Part shown: in pieces, positions 15,149 through 32,184 of the stretch
Numbering within the stretch: position 1 is the first letter of the stretch
How the letters are laid out: the number at the start of each line of letters is the position of its first letter
DNA from: a virus
Lineage: Duplodnaviria; Caudoviricetes
Strand: one strand, 5' to 3'
Length of the DNA stretch: 32,184 nt
Virus record (IMG/VR): IMGVR_UViG_3300023283_000396
Span: 1 to 32,184 of that record
The notes under the pieces: model-generated
Seen by the model: only the letters and a program-made list of their open reading frames with translations
What the model was told of the DNA's origin: nothing
Databases searched by the model: none
Position numbers and translations under genes: made by a program

Positions 15149-17516
15149 GGTCTGCGTCCTTGCTCTTGTTGTCGTCCCGTTCCATGAGGCGCTCGTAAGT
15201 CAGAAAGCCCATCGCTTCGTAACGATCCAGCACCGCCTTGACGCCGTCGCCGGGGAAGCGGGCGATCGTGGTGCAGCTGCAGTTGATGTCGTCCTGTCGC
15301 ACGCCGGTCGCCCGAGGGTGCGGGCAGGTGTTGCCGGTGTTGGCGATGGTGAACAGCCCGTCGTTCGCAACGGGTTGCTCCAGCGTGTTGCGCTCGGTGT
15401 CGTAGTGCCACATCCGCCCTGTCTCGGCCCGGCTCCACAGCCAGCTCTTGAGCGGCGTGCCCGCCTGCTTGCGGCCCAGTTGTCTCGCCTCCTCGACGCT
15501 GCGGCCGACCTCGGTACGGGCGATGGTCTTGGCGCGATGGCCGGTGGTGTTGAAGGTCTGGCGGATGCGCTCGGCGATCTGGTCGGGCGTTTCCTGCATG
15601 GACATCGCGTCGGCGATCGTGGCGGCCAGCTCGCGGCGCAGTGTCCGGTTTGAATTGGTCAGAGCCACCTCGCGCACCCGCATCGCCCGCTCGACCTCTG
15701 GATCGCGGAAGTCGAACTCTGGTGCATCGGCGTCGTCGCTTGCGCCCTGGCCATGCTCCGTGATCGCCTGCTCGCCGCCAAGCCGGAACGACTCGTGGAC
15801 GATGGGCCGGGCCTGCACGATCAGCCGCTGGTTGGCGGCGCTGATGTCGAAGATGATCTCGGCTATGAGGTCACGCTGCGTTACTCCGGAGCGAGCCTCT
15901 TCGGAGCGGTCGCCGTACACGCGGTCGAGGTTGGCCAGTGTCTCGGCACGCAGTTCGTGTCGAACCTTCTGGACCTTGCTGCGCATCTGCCGTTCGAGCA
16001 CAGACCATGAGCGACGCCACGCCGCGTAGATCCGTGCGAGTTGCTGCTCGGACAGCTCTCGCTCCTGGGCATCCAGCCTTTGATCACGGAGCGCCTTATC
16101 CTCGTCTTCTGGCTCTTGCGGCGGTGGCCCGGCCGGGTCGTCGTCGCCCGGCATGGGCTCGTCGGCCGGGATCAGGTTCACCGGCATGTAGCCGGTCTTC
16201 TGCCAGTCGTACGTGGGCAGGGCGAGGTCAAATGCGTCGATCACATCTGCGGGGGGTTGCATGTACTTCTCGATGAAGACAGCGCCTTCCTTGGCGCGGC
16301 TGAGCATCGATTCGCGCACGGCGGGAACACCGCTGGTGTCGAACCAGACCACAAGGTTCCCGCCTTGCCAGCCCGCCCGCTGGAGGTTGCGGTTGTGACG
16401 GGCCACCGCGATCTGCGATCGGCTCATCGTGCGGGCGCGTCTCGCGGTGCGGTCGCCGCTGAGCGAACGGTCGGCGTCGAAGCGGCTGATCACGCCCCGC
16501 CTGATCTCGTCGGCGATCCACTCGCCGCGCGGGATGGTGGTATCCATCCACAGCGAGTTCTTGGCGATGGTGCCGTGGGCCCGGTTGCTGTCCTCGTAGT
16601 AGCCAATCGCGGCGGGGTCCACACGCAACGCCACACACACGTCGACTTGCTTCATCTTTTGGAGCGTGCTGAACTCCATCTCGTCGAAGGTCGCGGCAAT
16701 GCGCTCCCACTTCATGCCGCCGTACAGAAACAGTGGCCGGCGGCGATTCTTCGGGCCGGCGTGACGTTTGGACAATTCCTCGCGCGTGTCGTTGACCTGT
16801 TCAGGCGTCGGGCGTTTGTCAGTGACCCATGCACCGCCCGGCTCGATGCCGTTGTCCAGGCTGGCGTCGTTGGCCACGTCCGACTTGTAGATCTGGGAGA
16901 TCGGCAGGCCACAGCTCTCAAGAGGCGACGAGAAGCCGTAAGGGTCCATCGGGTCAAAGCTGCTCAGGCCAATGGTCACAACCTGCATGAGGTCGAGCTT
17001 GATCGCCTCATCCCAGCGACGACCGGGCTGACGCCACTTCCAGCCAATCAATTCGCCTCTGCCTGGGCCTGAAACAACAGGCTTCATGTCCCAGCCCGCG
17101 ACCGGCAGCATCTGCGTGGGCCGACCGCTGGGGTTGTCGTCGCCGCCTTGGATTGTCCCGGGGGGAAAGACCAGGTGGGTAACGCCCGACAGGTCCAGGT
17201 ATGCCGAGCAGTTCTTGAGGAACTGCCTCTGCCCCATTCCGGGTGCGGGGTTGCACAAGAGGTCGTAGATCGGCCCTGATACAATCAACTGGTCGTCGCC
17301 GGTGGAAAGCATCAGCGGCATGGAAGCGAGAGTCTCGGCCTTCACGTCTACCGCTGCGCGGACCACAGAGACCTGGCGGTACGGGCTCTTTGGCCCGTCC
17401 TTCACGGCTCCGCCATGCGTGCGGCTGAGGAACGCCAGGAACTCGGCAGCACTTTTGTTGTGGGCCTGCTCTTCCAGTCGAGCGCGGCAAATCAGACTCT
17501 GCGACAGGTGCTTCAC
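15129..17516 (-). CDS. HK97-type portal protein fused to a Mu gpF/SPP1 gp7-like head morphogenesis domain (795 aa)
   Basis: Portal: V.AAV...AE.LASMPL, LL.NP, G.SPL, NG..PGG, L.GG.KW. C-terminal: RAKTIARTE, K.W, R..H, INCSC. Confidence 0.88.
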   Translation of the reverse strand: MKHLSQSLICRARLEEQAHNKSAAEFLAFLSRTHGGAVKDGPKSPYRQVSVVRAAVDVKAETLASMPLMLSTGDDQLIVSGPIYDLLCNPAPGMGQRQFLKNCSAYLDLSGVTHLVFPPGTIQGGDDNPSGRPTQMLPVAGWDMKPVVSGPGRGELIGWKWRQPGRRWDEAIKLDLMQVVTIGLSSFDPMDPYGFSSPLESCGLPISQIYKSDVANDASLDNGIEPGGAWVTDKRPTPEQVNDTREELSKRHAGPKNRRRPLFLYGGMKWERIAATFDEMEFSTLQKMKQVDVCVALRVDPAAIGYYEDSNRAHGTIAKNSLWMDTTIPRGEWIADEIRRGVISRFDADRSLSGDRTARRARTMSRSQIAVARHNRNLQRAGWQGGNLVVWFDTSGVPAVRESMLSRAKEGAVFIEKYMQPPADVIDAFDLALPTYDWQKTGYMPVNLIPADEPMPGDDDPAGPPPQEPEDEDKALRDQRLDAQERELSEQQLARIYAAWRRSWSVLERQMRSKVQKVRHELRAETLANLDRVYGDRSEEARSGVTQRDLIAEIIFDISAANQRLIVQARPIVHESFRLGGEQAITEHGQGASDDADAPEFDFRDPEVERAMRVREVALTNSNRTLRRELAATIADAMSMQETPDQIAERIRQTFNTTGHRAKTIARTEVGRSVEEARQLGRKQAGTPLKSWLWSRAETGRMWHYDTERNTLEQPVANDGLFTIANTGNTCPHPRATGVRQDDINCSCTTIARFPGDGVKAVLDRYEAMGFLTYERLMERDDNKSKDADHEQQDK

Positions 17517-22288: not shown

Positions 22289-22627
22289 TTATTTTTTTAT
22301 CCGCGACACGTGATGGATCAAGATGCCCAACATCAGGATCACGCAAGCGCGAAACAGGCCCGCACCAAAGTCATAGCTGAATTCTTCGTGCGGCCCAGTG
22401 CCTGGCCTCATACCAAAAACGCTCACCGCGATCACGAAACCGACCATCGCGATGACGGACAAGATGATACTGCCGCCAATCATAGCGCCGCCCTTGCCTA
22501 TTGACTTCAAGGCCCCAGGAAGATCATGGTATTCATCACCTGTCAGAGGCGATGATTCTCCTTCTTTTCTCACTTCTTTCGCCGCGTCGACTTGCTTTTT
22601 AATCTTGGACAAATCAGGTGCGCTCAT
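22289..22627 (-). CDS. Two-TM membrane protein, low GC (112 aa, MSAPDLSK...)
   Basis: Two hydrophobic segments; ATG at 22627 just after the stop of the lipoprotein gene. Confidence 0.7.
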   Translation of the reverse strand: MSAPDLSKIKKQVDAAKEVRKEGESSPLTGDEYHDLPGALKSIGKGGAMIGGSIILSVIAMVGFVIAVSVFGMRPGTGPHEEFSYDFGAGLFRACVILMLGILIHHVSRIKK

Positions 22628-22643
22628 GGGCGGCCAACTTTCT

Positions 22644-23312
22644 TTATTCGAACACGACCGTCCGCTCATCGGGCAGTGTAAAATTTTTGCCGCCGCGCTG
22701 GCCGCCCATCCGGACAAACATCTTGGCCACGGTCGGGGTTTCACCAAGCGTGGATATGGCCTTGAAATATGCGTCCGTTGGCATGTTTCCCAAGACCTGG
22801 CCATCGTCCATGACGTGCGGCCCAACCAACCCGGCAAAGCTCCACAGACCTACCTCTGCCTCCAACGCTTGCAGCGCAGTGTTGCGATCTACTTCAAGAA
22901 AGTAGATTTTGTTTTCAGCGTACCGTTCAGACCCCCAGTACTTCGGAGCTGAAATAACCGCGACCCAATCCTCATTGCTGTGCGTGAACGTAATCAACGC
23001 CGACCGGACGCACGCCGCGATCGACTGCAGATTTTCTTGTTTGGGGAATTTGCTGTCAATGACCGTTGGCTTCACAATCAGAATCAACGGGTCTTCACTA
23101 ACGACCATGAGGCGGCCGGTGCTCTGGTGCCATCCAACATATTCCTGAATCGCCAGTGCTGCAGGATGATCACTGTCGGTGGTATGCTCTGCGGGGTTTT
23201 CACTGCATGCGTTTGTTACGCCGAGAGCCAACATGATCAGGATGAGTGCTGAGCGGTTTATTGTGTTGGGGAAGGGTGGCGAAGCCGCCTCGGAGTCGTA
23301 AATGCATGTCAT
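22644..23312 (-). CDS. Putative lipoprotein, low GC (start uncertain)
   Basis: NRSALILIMLALGVTNA-C signal-peptide-II-like segment followed by a soluble domain. Confidence 0.65.
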   Translation of the reverse strand: MTCIYDSEAASPPFPNTINRSALILIMLALGVTNACSENPAEHTTDSDHPAALAIQEYVGWHQSTGRLMVVSEDPLILIVKPTVIDSKFPKQENLQSIAACVRSALITFTHSNEDWVAVISAPKYWGSERYAENKIYFLEVDRNTALQALEAEVGLWSFAGLVGPHVMDDGQVLGNMPTDAYFKAISTLGETPTVAKMFVRMGGQRGGKNFTLPDERTVVFE

Positions 23313-23676
23313 GGTGGCGGGCCTCCGCTACGAGATTCGGGTTGTTTCGGGGTGGGTCTATCTCAACGGCGAGCGGTGTTACGGCACCTGCGATCACGAC
23401 GCCCAGGTGATCCGGATCAGCGGCGCGGCCCAGCCGGACCGCCGGCTGCTGACGCTCAAGCACGAGGTCTGGCACGCCTGGGAGGAGCTGGTCCCGCTGC
23501 GGCTGGAGTCCGAGGAGGACCGGGCCCGCGCGTTCGCGGCCGTGGCGTCTTCGATCGACATCGACGTGCGCGACCTCCAGCCTCCAGACAATGAGCCGAT
23601 CACGTTCCAGGTCGTGCGCATCCTGTTACCGCAGGGCACCGAGCTCAAGTTTCAGCGTCGCGACCGCGACGCTTGA
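23302..23676 (+). CDS. HExxH zinc metallopeptidase, ImmA/IrrE-like (124 aa)
   Basis: YG.C......I.I, RR..TL.HEVWHA and EE..A..FA motifs; GGAG SD. Confidence 0.8.
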   Translation: MHVMVAGLRYEIRVVSGWVYLNGERCYGTCDHDAQVIRISGAAQPDRRLLTLKHEVWHAWEELVPLRLESEEDRARAFAAVASSIDIDVRDLQPPDNEPITFQVVRILLPQGTELKFQRRDRDA

Positions 23677-23980
23677 CCGGCGTGTCTTTGACACCGCCGG
23701 CCTTGCTGGCGGCGATGCGTTTGTCGTAGTTCATGCGTTCGATTAGTTGTTGCACCACTTCATCGGCACGGTCTTCGTTTTCGATAGAGAGTACGTCATT
23801 AGCCCGCGATCTTTGTTCGGAGACGGGCAACTCTGCAAAAGCAATCAATGCTGCCGACACAACCCTGTGTTTCATGCCTGAACCTGACTGCATGAAGGTC
23901 ATGTGGCGCAAGAGTTCGTGATACGCACGGTCGATTTTTGCACCCAGAGACGGCTTCTTGTCATTTTTTTTTGCTGACAT
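23645..23980 (-). CDS. Putative repressor, ribbon-helix-helix-like (111 aa)
   Basis: Divergent from the early operon across an AT-rich spacer. Strand (SLGAKI), helix, turn, helix (HRVVSAALIAFAELP) pattern. Confidence 0.55.
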   Translation of the reverse strand: MSAKKNDKKPSLGAKIDRAYHELLRHMTFMQSGSGMKHRVVSAALIAFAELPVSEQRSRANDVLSIENEDRADEVVQQLIERMNYDKRIAASKAGGVKDTPVKRRGRDAET

Positions 23981-23986
23981 AACGTT

Positions 23987-23992
23987 ATTTTA
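23987..23992 (-). promoter_or_regulatory. -10 element of a probably leaderless repressor transcript
   Basis: TAAAAT separated by 6 nt from the ATG at 23980; no SD. Confidence 0.5.
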
Positions 23993-24013
23993 CAATATGA
24001 CTTAGATACTTAT

Positions 24014-24075
24014 TTGCCAACAAAAAGATAACTACGCGGCAAAAAGCTCTTGAAAAGTTATCTTTTTGGTGGCAA
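24014..24075. promoter_or_regulatory. 20-bp inverted repeat, candidate operators
   Basis: ttgccaacaaaaagataact (24014-24033) and agttatctttttggtggcaa (24056-24075): 19/20 complementary, 22-bp spacer. Confidence 0.8.
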
Positions 24076-24078
24076 GAT
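24050..24078 (+). promoter_or_regulatory. Candidate early promoter
   Basis: TTGAAA-N17-CAAGAT with TG extended -10; predicted +1 falls on the ATG at 24085. Confidence 0.5.
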
Positions 24079-24084
24079 GGGTGC

Positions 24085-24261
24085 ATGAAACGCATCGGGA
24101 TCGTTGGACCAAATCCGAAGGCCTGCCGTGTCATTGCACGCGATGCGAAGACCGGCAAGAGCAAGAGCTGCACGGTGTACGGCCTGACCACAAAAGAACT
24201 CATTGACCTTGTAAAGGACGCGGTGAAACAACGCGCCGCCGAGGAGTCCCAAGCCGCATGA
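24085..24261 (+). CDS. First early gene, 58-aa basic protein (Cro/Ner position); not in the ORF track
   Basis: MKRIGIVGPNPKACRVIARDAKTGKSKSCTVYGLTTKELIDLVKDAVKQRAAEESQAA*, translated by hand. Confidence 0.7.
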   Translation: MKRIGIVGPNPKACRVIARDAKTGKSKSCTVYGLTTKELIDLVKDAVKQRAAEESQAA

Positions 24262-24267
24262 CCCCCT

Positions 24268-24420
24268 CACGCCGGCGGGCGTCCCGCCGCGTGCGTTCGC
24301 TGCCCTGCAGAGCCCATCCTCGACCGGCCAAGAACCGGCTGCAGGGCTTGGGGCCGAGAGGCCCCGCCAACCCCCGGAAGCTCCCCGTCGCCCCCCTGGG
24401 GCGGCGGGCGAGTTTGAACG
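24268..24420 (+). ncRNA. Candidate multi-stem structured RNA in the early leader
   Basis: Four hairpins, including GGGGCC-GAGA-GGCCCC; three are enclosed by CGTTC/GAACG next to the downstream SD. Confidence 0.5.
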
Positions 24421-24434
24421 AAAGGACCTGACCC

Positions 24435-24698
24435 ATGGCATCTTCAGCCCTCCAAAAGCCCGGCACCAAGCACGGCCCTTGCGCGGCTCACTGCGAGCAC
24501 CAGGACTGCTGCGAATCACGCCAGATGGCTGCGAGCGCCTGCCCGATCTGCAACAAGCCCATCGGCTACGGCAACCAGTTCTACGACCTGGCCGAAAACG
24601 ACATTGACCCTTTCGCAAGTGGCCTGGTCCACGCCAGCTGCTACGAGCAGTGGATCGAGCAGCCCGGTGCCAACCAGCACGCCATGGCGGAGTGCTGA
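24435..24698 (+). CDS. Cys/His-rich zinc-finger protein (87 aa)
   Basis: C...C.H..C, CPIC and HASC motifs; AAAGGA SD. Confidence 0.75.
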   Translation: MASSALQKPGTKHGPCAAHCEHQDCCESRQMAASACPICNKPIGYGNQFYDLAENDIDPFASGLVHASCYEQWIEQPGANQHAMAEC

Positions 24699-24795
24699 CC
24701 CTACCGCTTTCTCCCCTCCGCCCCGTCAGGGTCTGACCACACTGGCGGGGTTTCGCGGGCCGTTGCCCGCACACGTGATTGGCTCGCCTCTCAGC

Positions 24796-24875
24796 CATGG
24801 ATGAGAGCTTAGACCGGCGAAGGACCGCTGGGAGCAGACTCAGGCAAGGATGCGACGCAGATGGCAGAACGGATT
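24796..24875 (+). promoter_or_regulatory. Cluster of CsrA/RsmA-type GGA sites over the leader and RBS of the CII-like gene
   Basis: CATGGATG (24796), AAGGAC (24820), CTG-GGAG-CAG (24828), GCAAGGATGC (24844) and AACGGATT (24868). Confidence 0.6.
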
Positions 24876-25394
24876 ACATCAATGATCTGTGACATCCTCC
24901 GGGACCTGCACGAGCGTGGCGTGTTCACCGCCCATGACATGGGCGACCTGCTGGGCATCCACGCGACCAACTGTTACCCCTACCACTCCCACCGCGAGCC
25001 CAAGGCGACCAAGCTGCGCCTGGTCTTCCGGGCCATGCCGGCCGAGGCCCAACGCGACGTCCTGCACTGGCTGACCGGCGGGACGGGCTGGGTCAGCCAG
25101 CACCTGGACCAGGAGCTGGACATCAACGGCGACGGCGACGTGGACGTGAGCGACGCCATGATCGCGGCGGCCGAGCTGACCGGCGAGACCAGCGAATTTA
25201 TCGCCGACCTGGCCCTGGGCCTGTCGGACAAAAAGATCGACGACGCCGAGTGCGGCAAGCTCCAGGCCATGCTCGCCGAAGCGCGGCAGCACCTGGTCAT
25301 GACCGAGGCCGTGGTCGTCGAGCTAAACAAACAGCACAACGCCCGCCGCAAGTGCCGGCAACCGTTGACCGCGGGTGGGAGGGCTAAGCGATGA
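24861..25394 (+). CDS. Phage CII-like (186 CII/CP76-type) regulator with a DxNxDG Ca-binding-type loop (177 aa)
   Basis: N-terminal HTH-like FTAHDMGDLLGIHATNCY; C-terminal ETSE......L.D.KID..E...L pattern; DINGDGDVDVSD loop. Confidence 0.6.
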   Translation: MAERITSMICDILRDLHERGVFTAHDMGDLLGIHATNCYPYHSHREPKATKLRLVFRAMPAEAQRDVLHWLTGGTGWVSQHLDQELDINGDGDVDVSDAMIAAAELTGETSEFIADLALGLSDKKIDDAECGKLQAMLAEARQHLVMTEAVVVELNKQHNARRKCRQPLTAGGRAKR

Positions 25395-25936
25395 GAGATG
25401 AGCAGCGCATCGCCGCACTTTTTGTCGAACCGCAAGGTGTGTACAGCCGCATCCCATACTGCTGCCTGTGGGATCGTGAGCGCGACGCGAGACGTTACAC
25501 AGGTGATCTGCCGGTCATCTGTCACCCGCCTTGTGCTCGCTGGGGCAGGTACGCCACAGTCAAGGACCAACGCCTGGGTGATGATGAGGGCTGCGGCGCT
25601 GCGGCTGTTGACGCGGTGCGCAGGTGCGGTGGGGTGTTGGAGCATCCCGCGCATAGCCATATTTTTGACGCATTCGGGTTGCCTGCACCCGGCGAATTTG
25701 ACAGCTTTGGCGGTTACACCGCTGCGATCAATCAATACGATTATGGGCACAAGGCGATTAAGCCAACATGGCTCTACTGTGTCAATTGCCAAGTGCTCCG
25801 TTTGGCTAAAAAAAATTCGAGCGATCCGCCGCGACCTTTAGAAAATCTCAGCAAAAAGCAACGGTTAGCTACTCCTTTGCCATTGGCATTGGTGCTGGTG
25901 CACGCTGCCTTGCAGGTTGAGGCGGTGCGCCAATGA
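25391..25936 (+). CDS. Compact DNA cytosine-C5 methyltransferase-like protein (181 aa)
   Basis: HPPC (motif IV), LEHP (motif VI-like), Q.DYGH...K.TWLY; lacks a canonical FxGxG; lower GC. Confidence 0.65.
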   Translation: MRDEQRIAALFVEPQGVYSRIPYCCLWDRERDARRYTGDLPVICHPPCARWGRYATVKDQRLGDDEGCGAAAVDAVRRCGGVLEHPAHSHIFDAFGLPAPGEFDSFGGYTAAINQYDYGHKAIKPTWLYCVNCQVLRLAKKNSSDPPRPLENLSKKQRLATPLPLALVLVHAALQVEAVRQ

Positions 25937-26271
25937 GCCCGCTTGATCTATATAAGACGCAAGGGTCTGGCCGACCGCGCAGCGTGACGCTGCGCTGGAA
26001 CGAGCAGCCCGCCGCCGCGCTGGAACGCAAGGTGCGTCAGAGCCCGGCCCGGCCGCCGCTGAAGCTGGCGGTCTACCATCCCGGCGAGCGCGAACCCAAG
26101 GGCCACTGGTCGCTGGTCCTGTCGCGCGTCGACGCGACGACGGCCCAGCGGCGGGCCGCCCGCCTCGAACGGCTCAACCAGACGACGCACGTGATCAAGT
26201 CCGACCGCCCCGGCACGCACGGCCTGCTGTACGTCTGGCACCCCGCCCACCGGCTGGAGGTGTCGGCATGA
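25933..26271 (+). CDS. Hypothetical basic protein (112 aa)
   Basis: ATGA-coupled on both sides; GC3-rich. Confidence 0.7.
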   Translation: MSPLDLYKTQGSGRPRSVTLRWNEQPAAALERKVRQSPARPPLKLAVYHPGEREPKGHWSLVLSRVDATTAQRRAARLERLNQTTHVIKSDRPGTHGLLYVWHPAHRLEVSA

Positions 26272-27011
26272 TCAAGGTCAACTCCGACCCGATGCCCGAC
26301 GAGTTGGTCCAAGCCCAGACCCGTGCCACCTACGACATGGGCAGCCGGATCCGGACCAGCCCGATGGTGTTGGCCTGGATAGTCGCACTCAAGCACCAGC
26401 GGCCGGCGGCGACGGTCTCAGCCCTCGTGCGGTTCAGCAACCACTACGCGACGCTTAACGGCTACAAGGGCTGCAACTACGCCACGATGACAAGAGAGAT
26501 ACAGGAGCGTATGGCGCGCACGCCCAAGGCGGCCTTTGATCACGCCCCTGACGCGGTGTACGCCCCGCTTGACTGCCCGGTCCTTGGCAAGCGTCGTTAT
26601 ATGTTTGAGCCGCGCGACCTGGATGCGCTCCGCGCATATGAGACACAGCGGCGCGACGCAGACCTCCGCACGTCTGTGACCCGCAAGGCTCCGGTCAAGG
26701 CCGAGCCGCTGGACCTGGCGGTCACGCTGCTGCTACGCCCGGACCAGACCCCGGCCAGCGCAATGCGGGAGTTTCTGGGCGCGGGCAAGCGGGTCAGCCG
26801 CTTGCTGATCGCCGAGCTCAACCCCCTGGAGCTGATCGGCTACTGGCAGGAGGTCCCCGCCAAGGCCAAGACGGCGGCGGACATCGCCATGCGTAAGGGC
26901 CGGCTGATTGAGTTCGGCTCATCCCGCTGGCGCTGGGTGCCGGCGGCCGGACGCGAGACCAAGGACACCTGCAAATTGCCCAACGGCGTGCAAGCCGGGA
27001 GCCTGTTATGA
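26268..27011 (+). CDS. Hypothetical protein (247 aa)
   Basis: GGAGGT SD; ATGA-coupled on both sides. Confidence 0.75.
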   Translation: MIKVNSDPMPDELVQAQTRATYDMGSRIRTSPMVLAWIVALKHQRPAATVSALVRFSNHYATLNGYKGCNYATMTREIQERMARTPKAAFDHAPDAVYAPLDCPVLGKRRYMFEPRDLDALRAYETQRRDADLRTSVTRKAPVKAEPLDLAVTLLLRPDQTPASAMREFLGAGKRVSRLLIAELNPLELIGYWQEVPAKAKTAADIAMRKGRLIEFGSSRWRWVPAAGRETKDTCKLPNGVQAGSLL

Positions 27012-27346
27012 GCACGACCACCACACCAGTGACGACGGTCACCCCGGCCGACTGCCGGGGCAAGCCCAGCCGCGAGCGGCAGCAGTGCCCCTGTTGCGGC
27101 AAGACGTTCGCCGGCGGGTCGGTGGTCAGCCACCGCACCCAGTGGTGCAAGGAGCATCAGGCGTACGGCCGGCTCCGCCAGCTCTACTGCGACCACTGCG
27201 ACGTGGTCCACTGCTGGCTCCAGGAGGTCAAGGCCGGCGGCGGGCTGGGCATCGTGCTCAGCCACGGCGCGCGCATCACCGGCCGCAAGTACATCGACGA
27301 GTTTTTGGCCAAGCACCCCCAAGCCGCGGGGGTGGACCAATGCTGA
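27008..27346 (+). CDS. Zinc-ribbon protein (112 aa)
   Basis: CPCC and CDHC pairs; translationally coupled. Confidence 0.75.
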   Translation: MSTTTTPVTTVTPADCRGKPSRERQQCPCCGKTFAGGSVVSHRTQWCKEHQAYGRLRQLYCDHCDVVHCWLQEVKAGGGLGIVLSHGARITGRKYIDEFLAKHPQAAGVDQC

Positions 27347-27429
27347 TCCACTTTTTGAGCTACGGCGTCTACGCGCTGGCCCTGATTGTGTTTGGCCTGT
27401 GCGCCATCGCCCCCTTGTTTCGCCGCTGA
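27340..27429 (+). CDS. 29-aa single-TM peptide (MLIHFLSYGVYALALIVFGLCAIAPLFRR)
   Basis: GGTGGA SD, overlaps the previous stop, ends 3 nt before the transposase ATG. Confidence 0.55.
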   Translation: MLIHFLSYGVYALALIVFGLCAIAPLFRR

Positions 27430-27432
27430 ATC

Positions 27433-29694
27433 ATGACTCAAGCCTTACGCCATCCCGACCTGCCCCACGCACGCGCGGCCAACGCCGACGGCGAGCTGGA
27501 CTACAGCATGCTGATCGAGGCCGGCGAGGCGGCGGGCCTGCTGGGCAAGCACCGCGACGCGATGACCCGCGACTGCCGCGACCGGCTGCGGCACCAGGGC
27601 CTGGCGGTGTACGCCGCGCCGCCCAACGGCGGCAACCCGCGGTGGTGGGTCGATCGCCGCCACGACCTGCGCCTGGCCCCCGGAAGCGTGGGCGAGCAAT
27701 ACCAGACGCCACAGCTGGGCCACTACCCGCGCGAGAAGGTCCGCGAGGCGTGGGACCGCGCGGCGTGCGTCGAGCGGCTGCGCAAGATGCGGGCCCACGA
27801 GCGGCGGCCGGTCAAGCAGTGGCTGCCTGGCCTGATCGACCGGCTCAACCGCGAGATGGCCGGTCTCAAGGTCAGCCAGTCGAGGCTCTACGCCTGGGAC
27901 AAGGCGTACCAGACGCCGGCGGACCTGGTGGAGCTGATCGACAAGCGCGGCGGCAACCAGACCGCCAAGGCCGACCCGGCCTGCTGGACCTACTTCCGCA
28001 AGGTTTACTTGGATCCGCGCCAGCCGACCGTCCGCGCCTGCTGGCGCAAGACGCGGGCGCACGCCAAGGCCCAAGGCATGACCTGGTGCAGCTACTCGGC
28101 CTGCAGCCGCCACCTGCGCGACCACATCAGCGAGGAGGAGGACCTGATCAACCGCGACCCCAAGCGGTGGCGGCAGCAGATGCGCCCCTACGTCGAGCAG
28201 GACCCCGAGGCGTTCGCCGCCGGCGACTGCTGGGTGGGCGACCACGCGCAGCTGGACATGTGGGTGCGTCACGGCAAGAGCCTGATCCGCCCCTGGATCA
28301 CCGCCTGGATGGACTGGCGCACGCGCAAGGTGGTGGGCCACGCCTTCAGCGTCGCGCCCAACAGCTCGACCATCCTCCAGTCATTCCGGGCCGGCCTGCT
28401 GGACAAGGCCAACCACGGCGGGCCGAGCACCGTGTGGGTGGACAACGGCAAGGACTACGCCTGCTGGAGTTTCCACGGGGCGACCCGCAAGCAGCGCGAA
28501 AACAAACGCTTCCTCCCCGCGGGCTACATGCACGAGGGCGAGGTCGGCGGGCTGTTTGGCCTGCTCAACATCGAGGTCCACTTCAGCATCCCGCACAACC
28601 CCAACGGCAAGAGCCGGATGGAGCGGTGGTTTTTGACGATGCACGAGCTGTTCGACCGCGAGTTTGCCACCTACTGCGGGCGCAGCCAGGAGCACAAGCC
28701 CGAGGGCCTTGAGCGCATCCTAAACAAGCAGGTCCGCGTGCCGACGTTCGAGCAGGTCGCGGGGCACCTGGACAAGTTCATCGGCGCGTACAACGCGCGC
28801 AACGAGCACAGCATCAAAGACCTGGCCGACGACCAGGGCGAAGCGGTCAGCCCCGACCACGCGATGGCGCAGTGGTGCAACCGGACCCGCGCCCTGGCCG
28901 ACCCGTCGGTCCTGGACCTCTTCGCTCAGCAGTGGCACAAGCCGGTACGGGCCAACCGCAACGGCATCACCATCAGCCCGTTCGGCAAAAACCTCAGCTT
29001 CGGCGGCGACGACCTGGCCTTGTCGCGCTACAAGGCGCTGGCCGTCAAGGACCGGCCCTACCTGCACGTCAGCTACGACCCGGCCGACCTGTCGTCTATC
29101 CGCGTCTTCGACGAGCACTACCGCTTTATCTGCGAGACGTGCTGGAACCAGCTCGGCGGCCGGCACGACGGCGGCAAGGTCAGCCGCTTTGCCCTGCAGG
29201 AGCACATGCGCCGCCAACGCAAGTACCGCGACGCGATGCAGACCGTGGCCGACAACCGCGAGCTGGAGATGTACAGCGACGCGGAGCTGATCGCCCTGGG
29301 CAACCGGGACGACACGCCGCCCGAGCCCAAGGGCCCGGACCGTTTAGAGGTGGTCCAAACGCCTGTTGACGGCCAGATGGAGGAGGTCCAAAAGGACAAG
29401 CTCCGCAAGGCCGCCGGCGCGGAAAACCTCTCGGACCAGGACGACGATTTTGATTTTGAGCCGGCCAGCTTCCCCGCCCCCGCGGGCGGGCGTGACCAGC
29501 CGGACGAAGACGACGAGGACGGCGCGTTGCCCCCTCTGAGCCTGGACGACCTGTCACCCCCGGAAGACGGCCAGGAGGCCGACGACCTGCACGAACAGTT
29601 TGACCTGGCAGACACGGATGTCGCCCCTTACCGGTTCCCCGCCGACTCGACGGATGACGACGAGGACGAGGACCTGCTGGAGCAACTGCGATGA
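27433..29694 (+). CDS. Mu-like DDE transposase (MuA) (753 aa)
   Basis: WVGD, VDNGKDY, K..MERWF catalytic triad; L.DKRGGN linker; V.YDP.DLS.I.V Mu-transposase C-terminal motif. Confidence 0.95.
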   Translation: MTQALRHPDLPHARAANADGELDYSMLIEAGEAAGLLGKHRDAMTRDCRDRLRHQGLAVYAAPPNGGNPRWWVDRRHDLRLAPGSVGEQYQTPQLGHYPREKVREAWDRAACVERLRKMRAHERRPVKQWLPGLIDRLNREMAGLKVSQSRLYAWDKAYQTPADLVELIDKRGGNQTAKADPACWTYFRKVYLDPRQPTVRACWRKTRAHAKAQGMTWCSYSACSRHLRDHISEEEDLINRDPKRWRQQMRPYVEQDPEAFAAGDCWVGDHAQLDMWVRHGKSLIRPWITAWMDWRTRKVVGHAFSVAPNSSTILQSFRAGLLDKANHGGPSTVWVDNGKDYACWSFHGATRKQRENKRFLPAGYMHEGEVGGLFGLLNIEVHFSIPHNPNGKSRMERWFLTMHELFDREFATYCGRSQEHKPEGLERILNKQVRVPTFEQVAGHLDKFIGAYNARNEHSIKDLADDQGEAVSPDHAMAQWCNRTRALADPSVLDLFAQQWHKPVRANRNGITISPFGKNLSFGGDDLALSRYKALAVKDRPYLHVSYDPADLSSIRVFDEHYRFICETCWNQLGGRHDGGKVSRFALQEHMRRQRKYRDAMQTVADNRELEMYSDAELIALGNRDDTPPEPKGPDRLEVVQTPVDGQMEEVQKDKLRKAAGAENLSDQDDDFDFEPASFPAPAGGRDQPDEDDEDGALPPLSLDDLSPPEDGQEADDLHEQFDLADTDVAPYRFPADSTDDDEDEDLLEQLR

Positions 29695-30812
29695 GCAGCC
29701 ACAACGACACCCTTCAAGCCCTACACGATGATGCACGGAGGCTGCGCGTGGCGATCCCACTACCACCGGAGGGTGAGCTCTCACCCGATCAGATCAGCAA
29801 AGTCCAGGCCCTGCTCGAGCAGTTCCTCAAGGACAAGGGCATCAGCCAGGCCAGGCTGTCCAAGATGATGGGCGACGGCTACAGCACGTCGAGCATCTCC
29901 ACCTTCCGCAGCCTTGAGCCCGACGGCCACTACGCCGGCGACCGCGACCGCCTGGCCCGCGGGATCAACGACTTCATTGAGACCTACCTCCGCCGCGAGG
30001 AGCGGCCGCTGCCCGACGGCTACGTCGAGACGGCCGTCGCCCAGCGGATCATCACGGTGATCAACCAGTGCGTCAACCAGCGCAGCATGGGCCTGATCTC
30101 CGGCGACAGCGGGCGCGGCAAGACGATCGTGCTCAAGGCCGCCGAGTCCAAGATGCCCGGCTCGATCTACCTGCGCGTGCTCAAGGGCGGCAACTCCAAG
30201 GCCGGCTTCGCCCGGATGCTCGCCCGCAAGCTCAAGCTCCGCCGGTGGCGGACCACGCTCGACATCGAGGAGATGATCATCGAGCAGCTCACCGACTCGC
30301 AACGGCCGCTGTTGATCGATGAGGCGCACCAGCTCTCGATGGAGGCGCTCGAGCTGATCCGCGACATCCACGACGTCGCCGAGGTGCCCGTCATCCTGTG
30401 CGGCACGCGCGACATCGAAAAAGCGACCAGCGACCAGGACGTCTTTTTCGGCCAACTCGCCAGCCGCATCGGCATCCGCTACGACATCAACGCCTACGCC
30501 CGCAAGCACCCCAACGACCCCGAGCCCAGCAAGCCCATCCACACGGTCCAAGAGGTGGTCAAGCTCTACGGCGGCGGCAAGCTCAAGCTCACCGACGACG
30601 GCGCGGCCTACCTGGCCAAGCTGGCCAACCTCGAAGGCCAGGGCGGGCTCCGGCTGTGCCGGCAGATCATGGAGACGGCCATCACCGCCGCGAAGACCAA
30701 GACGCTTGACGCCAAGGCCCTGGCCAAGGTCCTGCGCCTGATGCACGGCAAGGCGTACCACGCGCAGCGGACCCAGGCCGCGCTCAACTCCTCTAACCTC
30801 AAGGTGGCATAG
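29691..30812 (+). CDS. MuB-like AAA+ transposition ATPase with an N-terminal HTH (373 aa)
   Basis: ISQARLS HTH, GDSGRGKT Walker A, LLIDEAH Walker B, QLASRIG arginine finger. Confidence 0.95.
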   Translation: MSSHNDTLQALHDDARRLRVAIPLPPEGELSPDQISKVQALLEQFLKDKGISQARLSKMMGDGYSTSSISTFRSLEPDGHYAGDRDRLARGINDFIETYLRREERPLPDGYVETAVAQRIITVINQCVNQRSMGLISGDSGRGKTIVLKAAESKMPGSIYLRVLKGGNSKAGFARMLARKLKLRRWRTTLDIEEMIIEQLTDSQRPLLIDEAHQLSMEALELIRDIHDVAEVPVILCGTRDIEKATSDQDVFFGQLASRIGIRYDINAYARKHPNDPEPSKPIHTVQEVVKLYGGGKLKLTDDGAAYLAKLANLEGQGGLRLCRQIMETAITAAKTKTLDAKALAKVLRLMHGKAYHAQRTQAALNSSNLKVA

Positions 30813-30818
30813 CACGCG

Positions 30819-31316
30819 ATGGCATGGACGCCGCAACAACGCAAGCTCTTCGGGTGGGCGTGTCGATCGACCGGGATCGATGACACGCACCGCCATCTGA
30901 TCCTGCGCCAGTCCGACCGGGCCATGCACGATGGCAAGATCACGTCCACCTCGCCCCGGCTCAACCAGGCGGACTTTGAGCGGTGCATGAGCGTGGCCGA
31001 AAACGCCGCGGGCGGCCAGCTCAAGATGAAAACCAAAAAGGGCGTGATCAAACGCTACCCCGTCCGCCACTGGCAGGACCGCCTGGTCAACGGGACGCTG
31101 CGCCGCCTGCGGCATAAGGCCCGCGACCTCGACGCCCGACTCGGCCAGTGCGGTGAGGACTGGACGCCCGGCGGCCCGAGCCTGGACGGCTGGATCAAGG
31201 CGCGCGTCGCCGGCGGCCAGGACAAAACGCTCGACGAGCTGACGCTGCACGAGCTCGAGGCCCTGGTCACCGGCCTCGAGAAGCACTTGAAAGGCCGGAA
31301 GGCGGTGTGCTCATGA
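30819..31316 (+). CDS. gemA: GemA-like (Mu gp16, DUF1018) protein (165 aa)
   Basis: G.DD...H..L....GK..S...L...D and L..L...E...LV.GL.K motifs in the early region. Confidence 0.65.
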   Translation: MAWTPQQRKLFGWACRSTGIDDTHRHLILRQSDRAMHDGKITSTSPRLNQADFERCMSVAENAAGGQLKMKTKKGVIKRYPVRHWQDRLVNGTLRRLRHKARDLDARLGQCGEDWTPGGPSLDGWIKARVAGGQDKTLDELTLHELEALVTGLEKHLKGRKAVCS

Positions 31317-31870
31317 GCGATGTCACCGCCAGCCACATCACGTGTGAGCAGGCCTTGTCAGACTGCGAGGGTTTGATCGTGTCCGTTGCGAAGCGCTTTG
31401 CCCACTGTAACACGCCCTGGCTTGACCTGGAGGACTTTATCCAGGAAGGGCGGCTGTGCGTGCTGGAGTTGCTGCCCAGCTACGACCCGCAGGTCGGTCA
31501 GCTCACCACCTATGTCTACCGGCCGATGCAGCGCCGATTCGCCGACATGTTCTCGCGCCGTGTCGGCGGTCGGCACGATCGGCACCGTGTGCCGCATGTT
31601 CTGCTCGAGGCGCGGGCGGCGCACATCAACGCGTCGTGCCGGCGACCCTGCACCGACCACGAAATCGCGGCTCAGCTCGACGAGCTACTCTCGCGGCTGC
31701 GCGGCGGCGTGGACGAGTTGGACTGGCAGCTGATCCTGCTCCAATACGACGACCTGGACACCTACACGAGCTGGGCCAAGCGGCTGGGATGCACGCGTAC
31801 GACGGTTATGCGGCGGGCCCGCAACGCGGAGAGCCGCGCCGTCGCCGCTCATCACCGGAGGGCCGCCTGA
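31313..31870 (+). CDS. Sigma-70-family RNA polymerase sigma factor, regions 2 and 4 only (185 aa)
   Basis: LIVSVAKRF...DLEDFIQEG........YDP....TTY (region 2); WAKRLGCTRTTV HTH (region 4). ATGA-coupled start at 31313. Confidence 0.85.
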   Translation: MSDVTASHITCEQALSDCEGLIVSVAKRFAHCNTPWLDLEDFIQEGRLCVLELLPSYDPQVGQLTTYVYRPMQRRFADMFSRRVGGRHDRHRVPHVLLEARAAHINASCRRPCTDHEIAAQLDELLSRLRGGVDELDWQLILLQYDDLDTYTSWAKRLGCTRTTVMRRARNAESRAVAAHHRRAA

Positions 31871-32184
31871 TGCTGGTGCTCTCGGCCAAAAACAACCAGG
31901 AGTTTTTCTTGTTCGATTCAGAGGCCGGTGCGTTCCTCGGTGTCGTCTGCGTCACGCGCACCGCCGGGAAACGCGCCAGACTGAATCTCGGGCTGGCCCC
32001 TCATATCAAAGTCGAGCGCCAAGAAAACCTCACCCCCGAGCACTGGCGCATGATCGGTGAGGCAGCCCGCCGCGAAGCTGATGCCAAGCAAGCAGAGGTG
32101 GTGCCGTCACCACCACCACCGCCACCCAAAGCAGCAAGCGGTGAATCTTGCGCCATTCAAGTGAAAAGACCTTTGATCAAATAA
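31870..32184 (+). CDS. csrA: CsrA/RsmA-like RNA-binding protein with a Pro-rich C-terminal extension (104 aa)
   Basis: MLVLSAK..Q.F....V.V....G.RARL.L..AP.IKV.R.E aligns by eye with the CsrA consensus; TGATG-coupled ATG at 31870. Confidence 0.72.
   Translation: MLVLSAKNNQEFFLFDSEAGAFLGVVCVTRTAGKRARLNLGLAPHIKVERQENLTPEHWRMIGEAARREADAKQAEVVPSPPPPPPKAASGESCAIQVKRPLIK

Follow-up and report, generated by a model that had tools for sequence, protein, structure and literature searches.

The described operators of CsrA and RsmE, among them those of hcnA (PDB code: 2jpp) and Escherichia coli glgC, display an ANGGAN hexaloop on a short stem with the Shine–Dalgarno (SD) sequence in the loop, often with a second hairpin further upstream (PMC7652899). 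E. coli CsrA bridges on glgC between an ANGGAN hairpin and the SD sequence, most hairpins obtained by SELEX had four or fewer pairs, Leu-4 and Arg-44 are named as critical for CsrA, and the protein can also activate translation (PMC7652899). The amount of free CsrA is set by FliW and flagellin in a switch described for Bacillus subtilis and Campylobacter jejuni (PMC7652899, PMC7829508), and CsrA residues 51 and 55 have a role in the contact with FliW (PMC7829508). The 32,184-nucleotide (nt) virus record IMGVR_UViG_3300023283_000396, hereafter the window, carries a hairpin with this architecture in the leader of a CII-like early regulator gene. Compared with the described CsrA and RsmE operators, this hairpin belongs to an early regulator of prophages from a planctomycete lineage, its closing pair varies (C-G, G-C or A-U), and it is a candidate read from sequence.

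Homologues of CsrA are encoded by 30 of 2517 phages (PMC7366521), and include PTXU04_00028, whose knockdown shrinks plaques (PMC11879866), gp47 of the Bcep22-like phage JC1 (PMC9144972) and orf23 of CSP3 (PMC10269572). Genes for CsrA are common among phages, but according to the knockdown report their role in the life cycle of a phage was untested until then (PMC11879866). The window resembles these phages in having a small CsrA-fold gene in a temperate phage (PMC7366521, PMC11879866, PMC9144972), but the sections of those reports considered here name no phage RNA target, whereas a conserved cis site co-occurs with the gene here, and the copies described here are more divergent, mostly falling below the Pfam cut-off, and lie in Mu-type early operons. 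Host RsmA affects prophages, as seen in an rsmA mutant of Serratia sp. ATCC 39006 (PMC4046660), and csrA overexpression raises cI in Salmonella (PMC12371270); a further report concerns the action of chromosomal CsrA on fliC (PMC13418256). In the Serratia and Salmonella cases a host CsrA-family protein restrains prophage expression or excision, as is proposed here, but these are genetic effects and a direct site on a phage mRNA does not appear in the portions of the reports considered, whereas a conserved candidate site can be read from sequence here. Searches of the main text of mostly open-access papers showed no CsrA operator conserved on an early regulator of a phage or in phages of planctomycetes; the phage table of PMC7366521 could list transposable phages.

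The strongest element of the leader is a CsrA-type hairpin at 24814–24831 (+ strand), upstream of the SD sequence, in which a 6-base-pair (bp) stem found in both the minimum free energy and the centroid folds presents the hexaloop AAGGAC (24820–24825). No other ANGGAN stem in the window is as long, its closing-pair probability is 0.98, and a 6-bp ANGGAN stem is reached by 0.1% of leader shuffles. A site that overlaps the SD sequence, GC-AAGGAT-GC with a 2-bp stem (24844–24853, + strand), lies 26 nt downstream of the upstream loop, and at the corresponding position 20 of 23 Mu-type relatives have a hairpin. The sequence-only reading of this DNA, made before the present analysis, had pointed to five GGA motifs around the CII-like start, to two perfect CANGGANG matches and to a GGA that acts as the SD sequence itself. 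The motifs are where that reading placed them, with GGA at 24799, 24822, 24831, 24848 and 24871 and CANGGANG at 24796 and 24845, and the GGA at 24848 ends 10 nt 5' of the ATG at 24861. Their number, which had been taken as notable, was rejected as evidence because five or more GGA occur in 35% of 5000 dinucleotide shuffles of 24796–24875; five GGA are also reached by six separate sense-strand stretches of 24001–32184, and CANGGANG occurs 20 times in the whole window. The claim that every GGA can sit in a hairpin loop is overstated: ANGGAN loops with more than one pair hold two of the five, the stems being 6 bp at 24820 and 2 bp at 24846 but 1 bp at 24797 and 24869, and the GGA at 24831 is not in an ANGGAN loop. 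The best site is the 6-bp hairpin and neither of the two perfect matches. The CANGGANG match at 24796–24803 (+ strand), with a 1-bp stem and a closing-pair probability of 0.0, is a possible minor site, and ACGGAT with a 1-bp stem (24868–24875, + strand) lies within the first codons, 8 nt before an in-frame ATG at 24882 that could be an alternative start.

Related loci were collected by searching viral contigs and genomes with a MuB alignment and then with a CII-like alignment (20 of 401 genomes matched, and all 30 matches were examined), and an ANGGAN loop with its stem was scored within 119 nt around the start region. In this discovery set, 11 of 12 CII-like genes upstream of MuA have an ANGGAN stem of at least 4 bp and all 12 have one of at least 2 bp, whereas none of 24 other homologues used as controls reaches 3 bp; the background is 1.4% of 26,392 scanned segments with such a hairpin of at least 4 bp. 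With a single definition applied throughout, 8 of 8 starts of CII-like genes pass, compared with 9 of 121 other phage gene starts. Two non-Mu prophage-like loci (L101 and L108, 3 and 1 bp) and a 1.7-kb contig (L110, 4 bp) were set aside. When 12 hairpins chosen for having stems were compared for covariation, 85% of the stem cells pair and 16 double-sided changes are present, a result given by 0 of 500 shuffles, and slid controls show 20–47% pairing.

A later search (98 of 401 genomes matched, with the best 30 matches considered) together with a metagenome scan provided a held-out set of 13 new non-Mu homologues and 11 new Mu-type loci, in every one of which the presence of MuA was confirmed. 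Over both sets, nine loci were removed as duplicates or near-identical copies. The hairpin reaches at least 4 bp in 8 of the 11 Mu-type loci and at least 2 bp in 10, and 0 of the 13 controls reach 2 bp. The one miss among them, L139, has a stop near the start of the CII-like frame. L183 (G422:C1:2039500-2059499), the sole Mu-type locus without the hairpin, is apparently a decayed element whose CII-like frame is interrupted close to its start, with a partial match to MuA and no match to MuB. In the pooled sets, an ANGGAN hairpin of at least 4 bp is present in 19 of 23 Mu-type loci and in 0 of 37 non-Mu homologues, for six of which the wider gene context was checked. In a tree, which splits the two groups without reference to the hairpin, a 95/96 branch divides all 23 Mu-type CII-like proteins from 36 of the 37 others, and the terminal branches of the Mu-type proteins are long.

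Eight control loop patterns occur in 0–2 of 23 Mu-type leaders, and loop position 1 must be A, since G, C or T at that position gives 0 of 23, whereas the letters of the stem vary freely with pairing kept, G-U pairs included. In 14 of the 31 loops the second position is C, a letter that SD pairing would not favour. In 20 of 23 leaders the loop GGA stands 5–11 nt ahead of an in-frame start, placing the SD sequence in the loop, and two hairpins 19–51 nt apart are present in 9 of 23. Among 439 SD-like GGA sites counted over 27 phage-bearing loci, a hairpin of this kind accompanies 23, of which 12 belong to CII-like leaders. The leader hairpin is a real and specific cis-regulatory feature, with an ANGGAN hexaloop on a short stem, overlap with the SD sequence and compensatory change. 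Conservation, covariation, the held-out test and a positive control in host flagellin genes all strongly support the earlier proposal that the ribosome-binding site (RBS) of the CII-like gene is a CsrA-type operator, and the hairpin is very probably a binding site for a protein of the CsrA family.

The distribution of csrA genes bears on which CsrA would read this site. A csrA-like gene is present in 5 of the 23 Mu-type loci and was not found in 11 with downstream coverage, and the remaining 7 are truncated or decayed. Comparison of relatives with and without csrA, as the sequence-only reading had advised, showed that the hairpin reaches at least 4 bp in 5 of 5 loci with the phage gene and in 9 of 11 where none was found, and therefore the hairpin is independent of a detectable phage csrA. 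All 10 host genomes tested have one to three csrA genes over the cut-off. In 5 of 5 hosts fliW lies just upstream of a csrA and the csrA-adjacent flagellin gene has a 7–8-bp ANGGAG hairpin on its SD sequence (15 of 17 flagellin matches were examined, and 7 reach 4 bp), and therefore the expected natural target of the FliW-type host CsrA shares the architecture of the phage site. The host fliW-type CsrA copies carry I51 and N55, so that the Phycisphaerae hosts share with the described switch the fliW–csrA–flagellin clusters, the two FliW-contact residues and the flagellin SD hairpin; the present case differs in that a phage gene bears the same kind of site and in that the protein encoded in the window has E57 and M61 at the FliW-contact positions. 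Because the operator is kept where no phage csrA was found and 10 of 10 hosts encode CsrA, host CsrA is the likelier main ligand. On this sequence evidence it is probably the main repressor of the phage early regulator, the phage CsrA being accessory. The circuit first proposed, a phage CsrA with host input, thus keeps its operator and its CsrA fold while its emphasis is reversed.

The phage protein itself is encoded by an open frame of 104 amino acids (aa) at 31870–32184 (+ strand), with a core of about residues 1–60 and a proline-rich tail, and profile and model comparisons make it very likely a divergent CsrA fold that lies below the cut-off for Pfam membership. Alignment of R50 with CsrA R44 agrees with the earlier claim that the critical arginine is retained, and L4 is also kept. 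The search against PF02599 that had been proposed falls short (12 of 27 bits), while structure prediction gives a CsrA fold. The full-length protein has no Pfam or PHROG match, and residues 1–64 match PF02599 as their only family (12.2 bits, E 0.18; 12.8 bits for residues 1–56), so that the Pfam gathering score of 27 bits is not reached by the window protein, whereas that of the syntenic relative L181 passes at 32 bits. Direct homologue searches gave no database relative beyond the protein itself, two repeat proteins that match an F-L-F-D stretch being judged spurious, and phmmer with the single sequence against PDB gave nothing relevant. Similarly divergent csrA-like genes are present in the distal early operon of L005, L113, L177 and L181, three of the four having been found with a CsrA-seeded profile. 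A profile of the five phage rows matches host CsrA by HHalign at 97.5%, compared with 71% for the single sequence, and its 10 matches in PDB are all CsrA-family chains.

One of five single-sequence AlphaFold 2 models has a core of five strands and one helix (predicted local distance difference test (pLDDT) 83.8). With this model, Foldseek against PDB found no CsrA, BFVD gave weak CsrA-named rows at ranks 9 and 42, VIA gave the RsmN-type chain 4kji at rank 32 (Z 2.9), and the CsrA clusters of the ESM Atlas score 0.84 and 0.83, below the bar of 0.9. The alignment-guided model (pLDDT 88.7) has CsrA or RsmE in its top 11 Foldseek rows (prob 0.96–1.0, TMq 0.50–0.63, E 0.06–0.2), a result that is partly circular. 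A homodimer is predicted with a score of 0.70 against 0.01 for the best control, with contacts agreeing to at least 91% and pLDDT of at least 84, although the score may reflect likeness to solved CsrA dimers, and the input alignment contained canonical CsrA; the dimer mark is reached by 20 of 30 solved dimers and by 1 of 23 single chains.

R44 is invariant in all five Mu-type copies. R6, G15 and K29 are invariant in 8 of 8 canonical host copies, and the window protein has A6, F15 and R in those columns, with E49 adjoining R50. The FliW-contact residues V/I51 and N55 are absent from the window protein, and L113 keeps N at the position of residue 55. All five Mu-type copies lack R6 and have loop insertions or a remodelled C-terminus. 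ANGGAN hairpins of 3–5 bp lie on the SD sequence of the csrA-like genes L005:13234, L113:17304, L181:9863 and L116:10021, a sequence pattern that suggests autoregulation in these four relatives; the csrA-like gene has no hairpin in its own leader in the window copy, L177 or L117. Two further observations concern CsrA-type proteins in this group. A 145-aa open reading frame (ORF), L003:2254-2688 (− strand), resembles two tandem CsrA-type beta units (HHalign 38% for the second half). A second class of CsrA paralogues in Phycisphaerae hosts (L069–L073) has four extra residues inserted in the very loop that is also extended in the phage copies, mostly lacks I51 and N55, and is a possible source of the phage csrA-like genes.

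These features can be arranged into a mechanism in which CsrA, mainly the FliW-linked CsrA of the host, would bind the leader hairpin over the SD sequence and so block translation of the CII-like early regulator. In the window, a CsrA dimer would dock on the 6-bp hairpin at 24814–24831 and form a bridge to the weak SD site, which lies 26 nt further downstream, in the manner described for glgC (PMC7652899). Since from 24861 through the transposase gene to 32184 each gene overlaps the next or follows it within 6 nt, as the sequence-only reading had said of the genes that follow the CII-like one, repression could be polar and possibly extend to the coupled genes up to the transposase, the coupling being itself deduced from the overlaps. 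Free host CsrA would be governed by FliW and flagellin, and the phage would thereby gain a readout of the flagellar state. The phage CsrA-fold protein would be an optional module from the far end of the operon that, if it binds RNA, supplies a late, FliW-insensitive dose of the same repression; without FliW contacts it could reinforce or antagonise repression by host CsrA. Carried by analogy to its full extent, Phycisphaerae transposable prophages would have copied a flagellin-type operator onto their early regulator, the FliW–CsrA switch would tie induction or transposition to the state of flagellar assembly, and some prophages would have added a FliW-blind CsrA that locks or overrides it; this extended scheme is offered tentatively and is rather doubtful as a whole.

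Chance alone, by which G-rich DNA and SD sequences yield such motifs, does account for the GGA count and for the protease and 11871 sites described below, but as an explanation of the hairpin it is scarcely credible, being contradicted by the held-out replication, by 19 of 23 loci against a background of 1.4% and by the 0 of 37 homologue controls. A hairpin that is real could still serve as a protein-independent damper of translation, as the site of another RNA-binding protein or as a DNA-level palindrome in an operator or promoter element. Initiation is lowered by any stem that flanks an SD sequence, and SD function by itself would keep the GGA conserved. However, the SD sequence is displayed unpaired in the loop, A is required at loop position 1, the same loop is also present on second hairpins that do not lie at SD distance, and the freedom of the stem letters under kept pairing, with G-U pairs included, does not fit these explanations, which are very unlikely taken together.

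If the hairpin is a CsrA site, the phage's own CsrA-like protein might be its main ligand and form a negative feedback from the distal to the proximal end of the operon, and such a loop would be the timer or lysis–lysogeny switch that was first suggested. The csrA-like gene does lie in the distal early operon of five Mu-type prophages that all have a hairpin of at least 4 bp, with R44 invariant, a predicted homodimer that possibly reflects likeness to solved dimers, and ANGGAN hairpins on the gene's own SD sequence in 3 of 4 Mu-type relatives; but the hairpin is retained just as well, in 9 of 11 loci, where no phage csrA was found, the window protein has lost R6, has E49 beside R50 and scores 12 of 27 bits, and the window gene lacks a site on its own leader, so that this feedback is unlikely. 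Host CsrA might instead read the operator while the phage protein acts as a dominant-negative partner that relieves repression once early transcription starts, or acts on host mRNAs with changed specificity. The missing R6, the loop insertions or remodelled C-terminus of all five copies and a dimer interface that is predicted to be intact would suit such a partner, and mobile-element CsrA homologues have been proposed to act on host processes (PMC11879866), but L4 and R44 are kept in the window protein, and we consider this role distinctly unlikely.

Several points weigh against repression of the CII-like gene by host CsrA. The window's own SD site has just 2 bp, and local folds give the best hairpin a closing-pair probability of at least 0.8 in 4 of 12 discovery leaders and of 0.4 or less in 8 of 12. 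Choosing the covariation rows for their stems makes that count lean toward structure. A very divergent phage csrA could be missed, and several of the 11 records in which none was found end 4–5 kb past the last shared early gene. The CsrA of the window's own host is deduced from relatives, the label "CII-like" rests on weak PHROG matches, and the sign of control is not fixed because CsrA can also activate translation.

Sites on late genes, which the sequence-only reading had counted with the circuit, are present, but an operator role for them is not supported. The protease RBS (GC-AAGGAC-GC, 15154–15163, − strand) contains GCAAGGACGC with a 2-bp stem and lies outside the conserved operator, and 0 of 10 protease starts reach a 4-bp stem; ACAAGGAC precedes the 11871 gene, where the stem is 0 bp. 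Both were rejected as regulon members and are ordinary SD sequences. An ACGGAN hairpin of at least 3 bp recurs 30–85 nt upstream of MuB in several relatives (29611–29622 in the window). The ANGGAN hairpins upstream of MuB (6 of 20 with at least 4 bp) were not counted, as they are scattered over the acidic tail of MuA or the beginning of MuB, and the site in the window is confounded by the acidic coding run D-T-D-V.

The window is likely a Mu-like prophage. A MuA DDE transposase and a MuB ATPase stand in tandem, as is characteristic of Mu-like transposable phages, within a rightward operon that family searches also show to contain a sigma-70-type gene, and the minus strand has HK97-type protease, capsid, portal and terminase genes. 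MuA, MuB, HK97-type and RsmN-type are names used here for the matched families. The early operon shares with Mu-like phages (phrog_310, phrog_296, phrog_101) the MuA and MuB genes with a CII-like helix-turn-helix (HTH) gene upstream, and differs in the HK97-type protease and capsid, the sigma-70-type gene, the csrA-like gene and the weakness of the CII-like similarity (E 0.031). Since its closest MuB relatives in genomes (37–44% identity) are in metagenome-assembled genomes of Phycisphaerae and other Planctomycetota, the host is probably a phycisphaeral planctomycete. The proteins of the window come from a source contig of 165,337 nt and the window ends exactly at the stop codon of its last gene (31870–32184), and therefore a prophage cut at gene boundaries is the most likely origin of the record. 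The designation of that gene as the last early one, made in the sequence-only reading, is accordingly tentative.

Downstream of the CII-like gene, a chain of small genes that overlap by ATGA and similar sequences (25391, 25933, 26268, 27008 and a 29-aa ORF at 27340; 25391–27429, + strand) leads to the MuA-like DDE transposase (27433–29694, + strand; PF09039, PF09299 and PF02914 over the cut-off, phrog_310 E 8.8e-83), which is followed by the MuB-like AAA+ transposition ATPase (29691–30812, + strand; AAA_22 and TniB, phrog_296 E 1.7e-42). The sigma-70-type gene with region 2 and an HTH (31313–31870, + strand; PF04542 E 2.7e-9) has a stop that overlaps the csrA-like start (TGATG). It occupies the distal early operon position expected for a late activator, and tblastn gave no match to it in any related locus. 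A divergent 111-aa gene (23645–23980, − strand), which is repressor-like by position only and has a sigma70-like site at 24020–23992, faces away from the early operon and has no family match in Pfam or PHROG. The promoter scan found no rightward sigma70 site and identified no promoter for the establishment of lysogeny, no + strand terminator was found between the leader and the csrA-like gene, and an Rfam search over 23900–25000 gave nothing credible. A low-GC island (22289–23980, 56–58% against about 66%) lies between the late genes and the early operon and holds two cargo genes, whose products are probably membrane proteins or secreted, together with a DUF6782 metallopeptidase-like gene (23302–23676) common to several relatives.

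The CII-like regulator (24861–25394, + strand) has, in the family alignment, an N-terminal HTH-like region, a D-x-N/D-G-D-G-x-V-D motif and a helical C-terminus. Its phrog_101 match is weak (E 0.031); 4 of 16 family members match phrog_101 at E 0.05 or better (best 4.1e-9), and the family has no match to the Pfam CII family. A metagenome scan with the CII-like protein confirmed no locus, and single-protein locus scans gave one irrelevant locus each. An apparently chromosomal clade of conserved proteins with the CII-like HTH and D-x-N-G-D-G (L083–L100 and L134–L153; for example G258:C1:3230619-3231107) is widespread in the order of G006, the family being matched in 98 of 401 genomes, and is without the hairpin; it may represent a phage regulator that became domesticated, and its motif resembles a calcium-binding one. 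In two non-Mu prophage-like loci (L116:10021-10200 and L117:8529-8708, − strand), a canonical csrA lies just downstream of the CII-like gene, and an ACGGAT loop again forms the SD sequence of the CII-like gene (stems of 1 and 3 bp); the association of csrA with a CII-like gene may also occur outside transposable phages.

Across a deeply diverged prophage family, one phage early regulator carries a specific, conserved and covarying candidate operator, with built-in negative controls in the non-Mu homologues of the same gene and a positive control in the flagellin leaders of the hosts. The long-standing question of what CsrA does for a phage thereby becomes tractable, and the operator points to a post-transcriptional host input into the early control of transposable phages.

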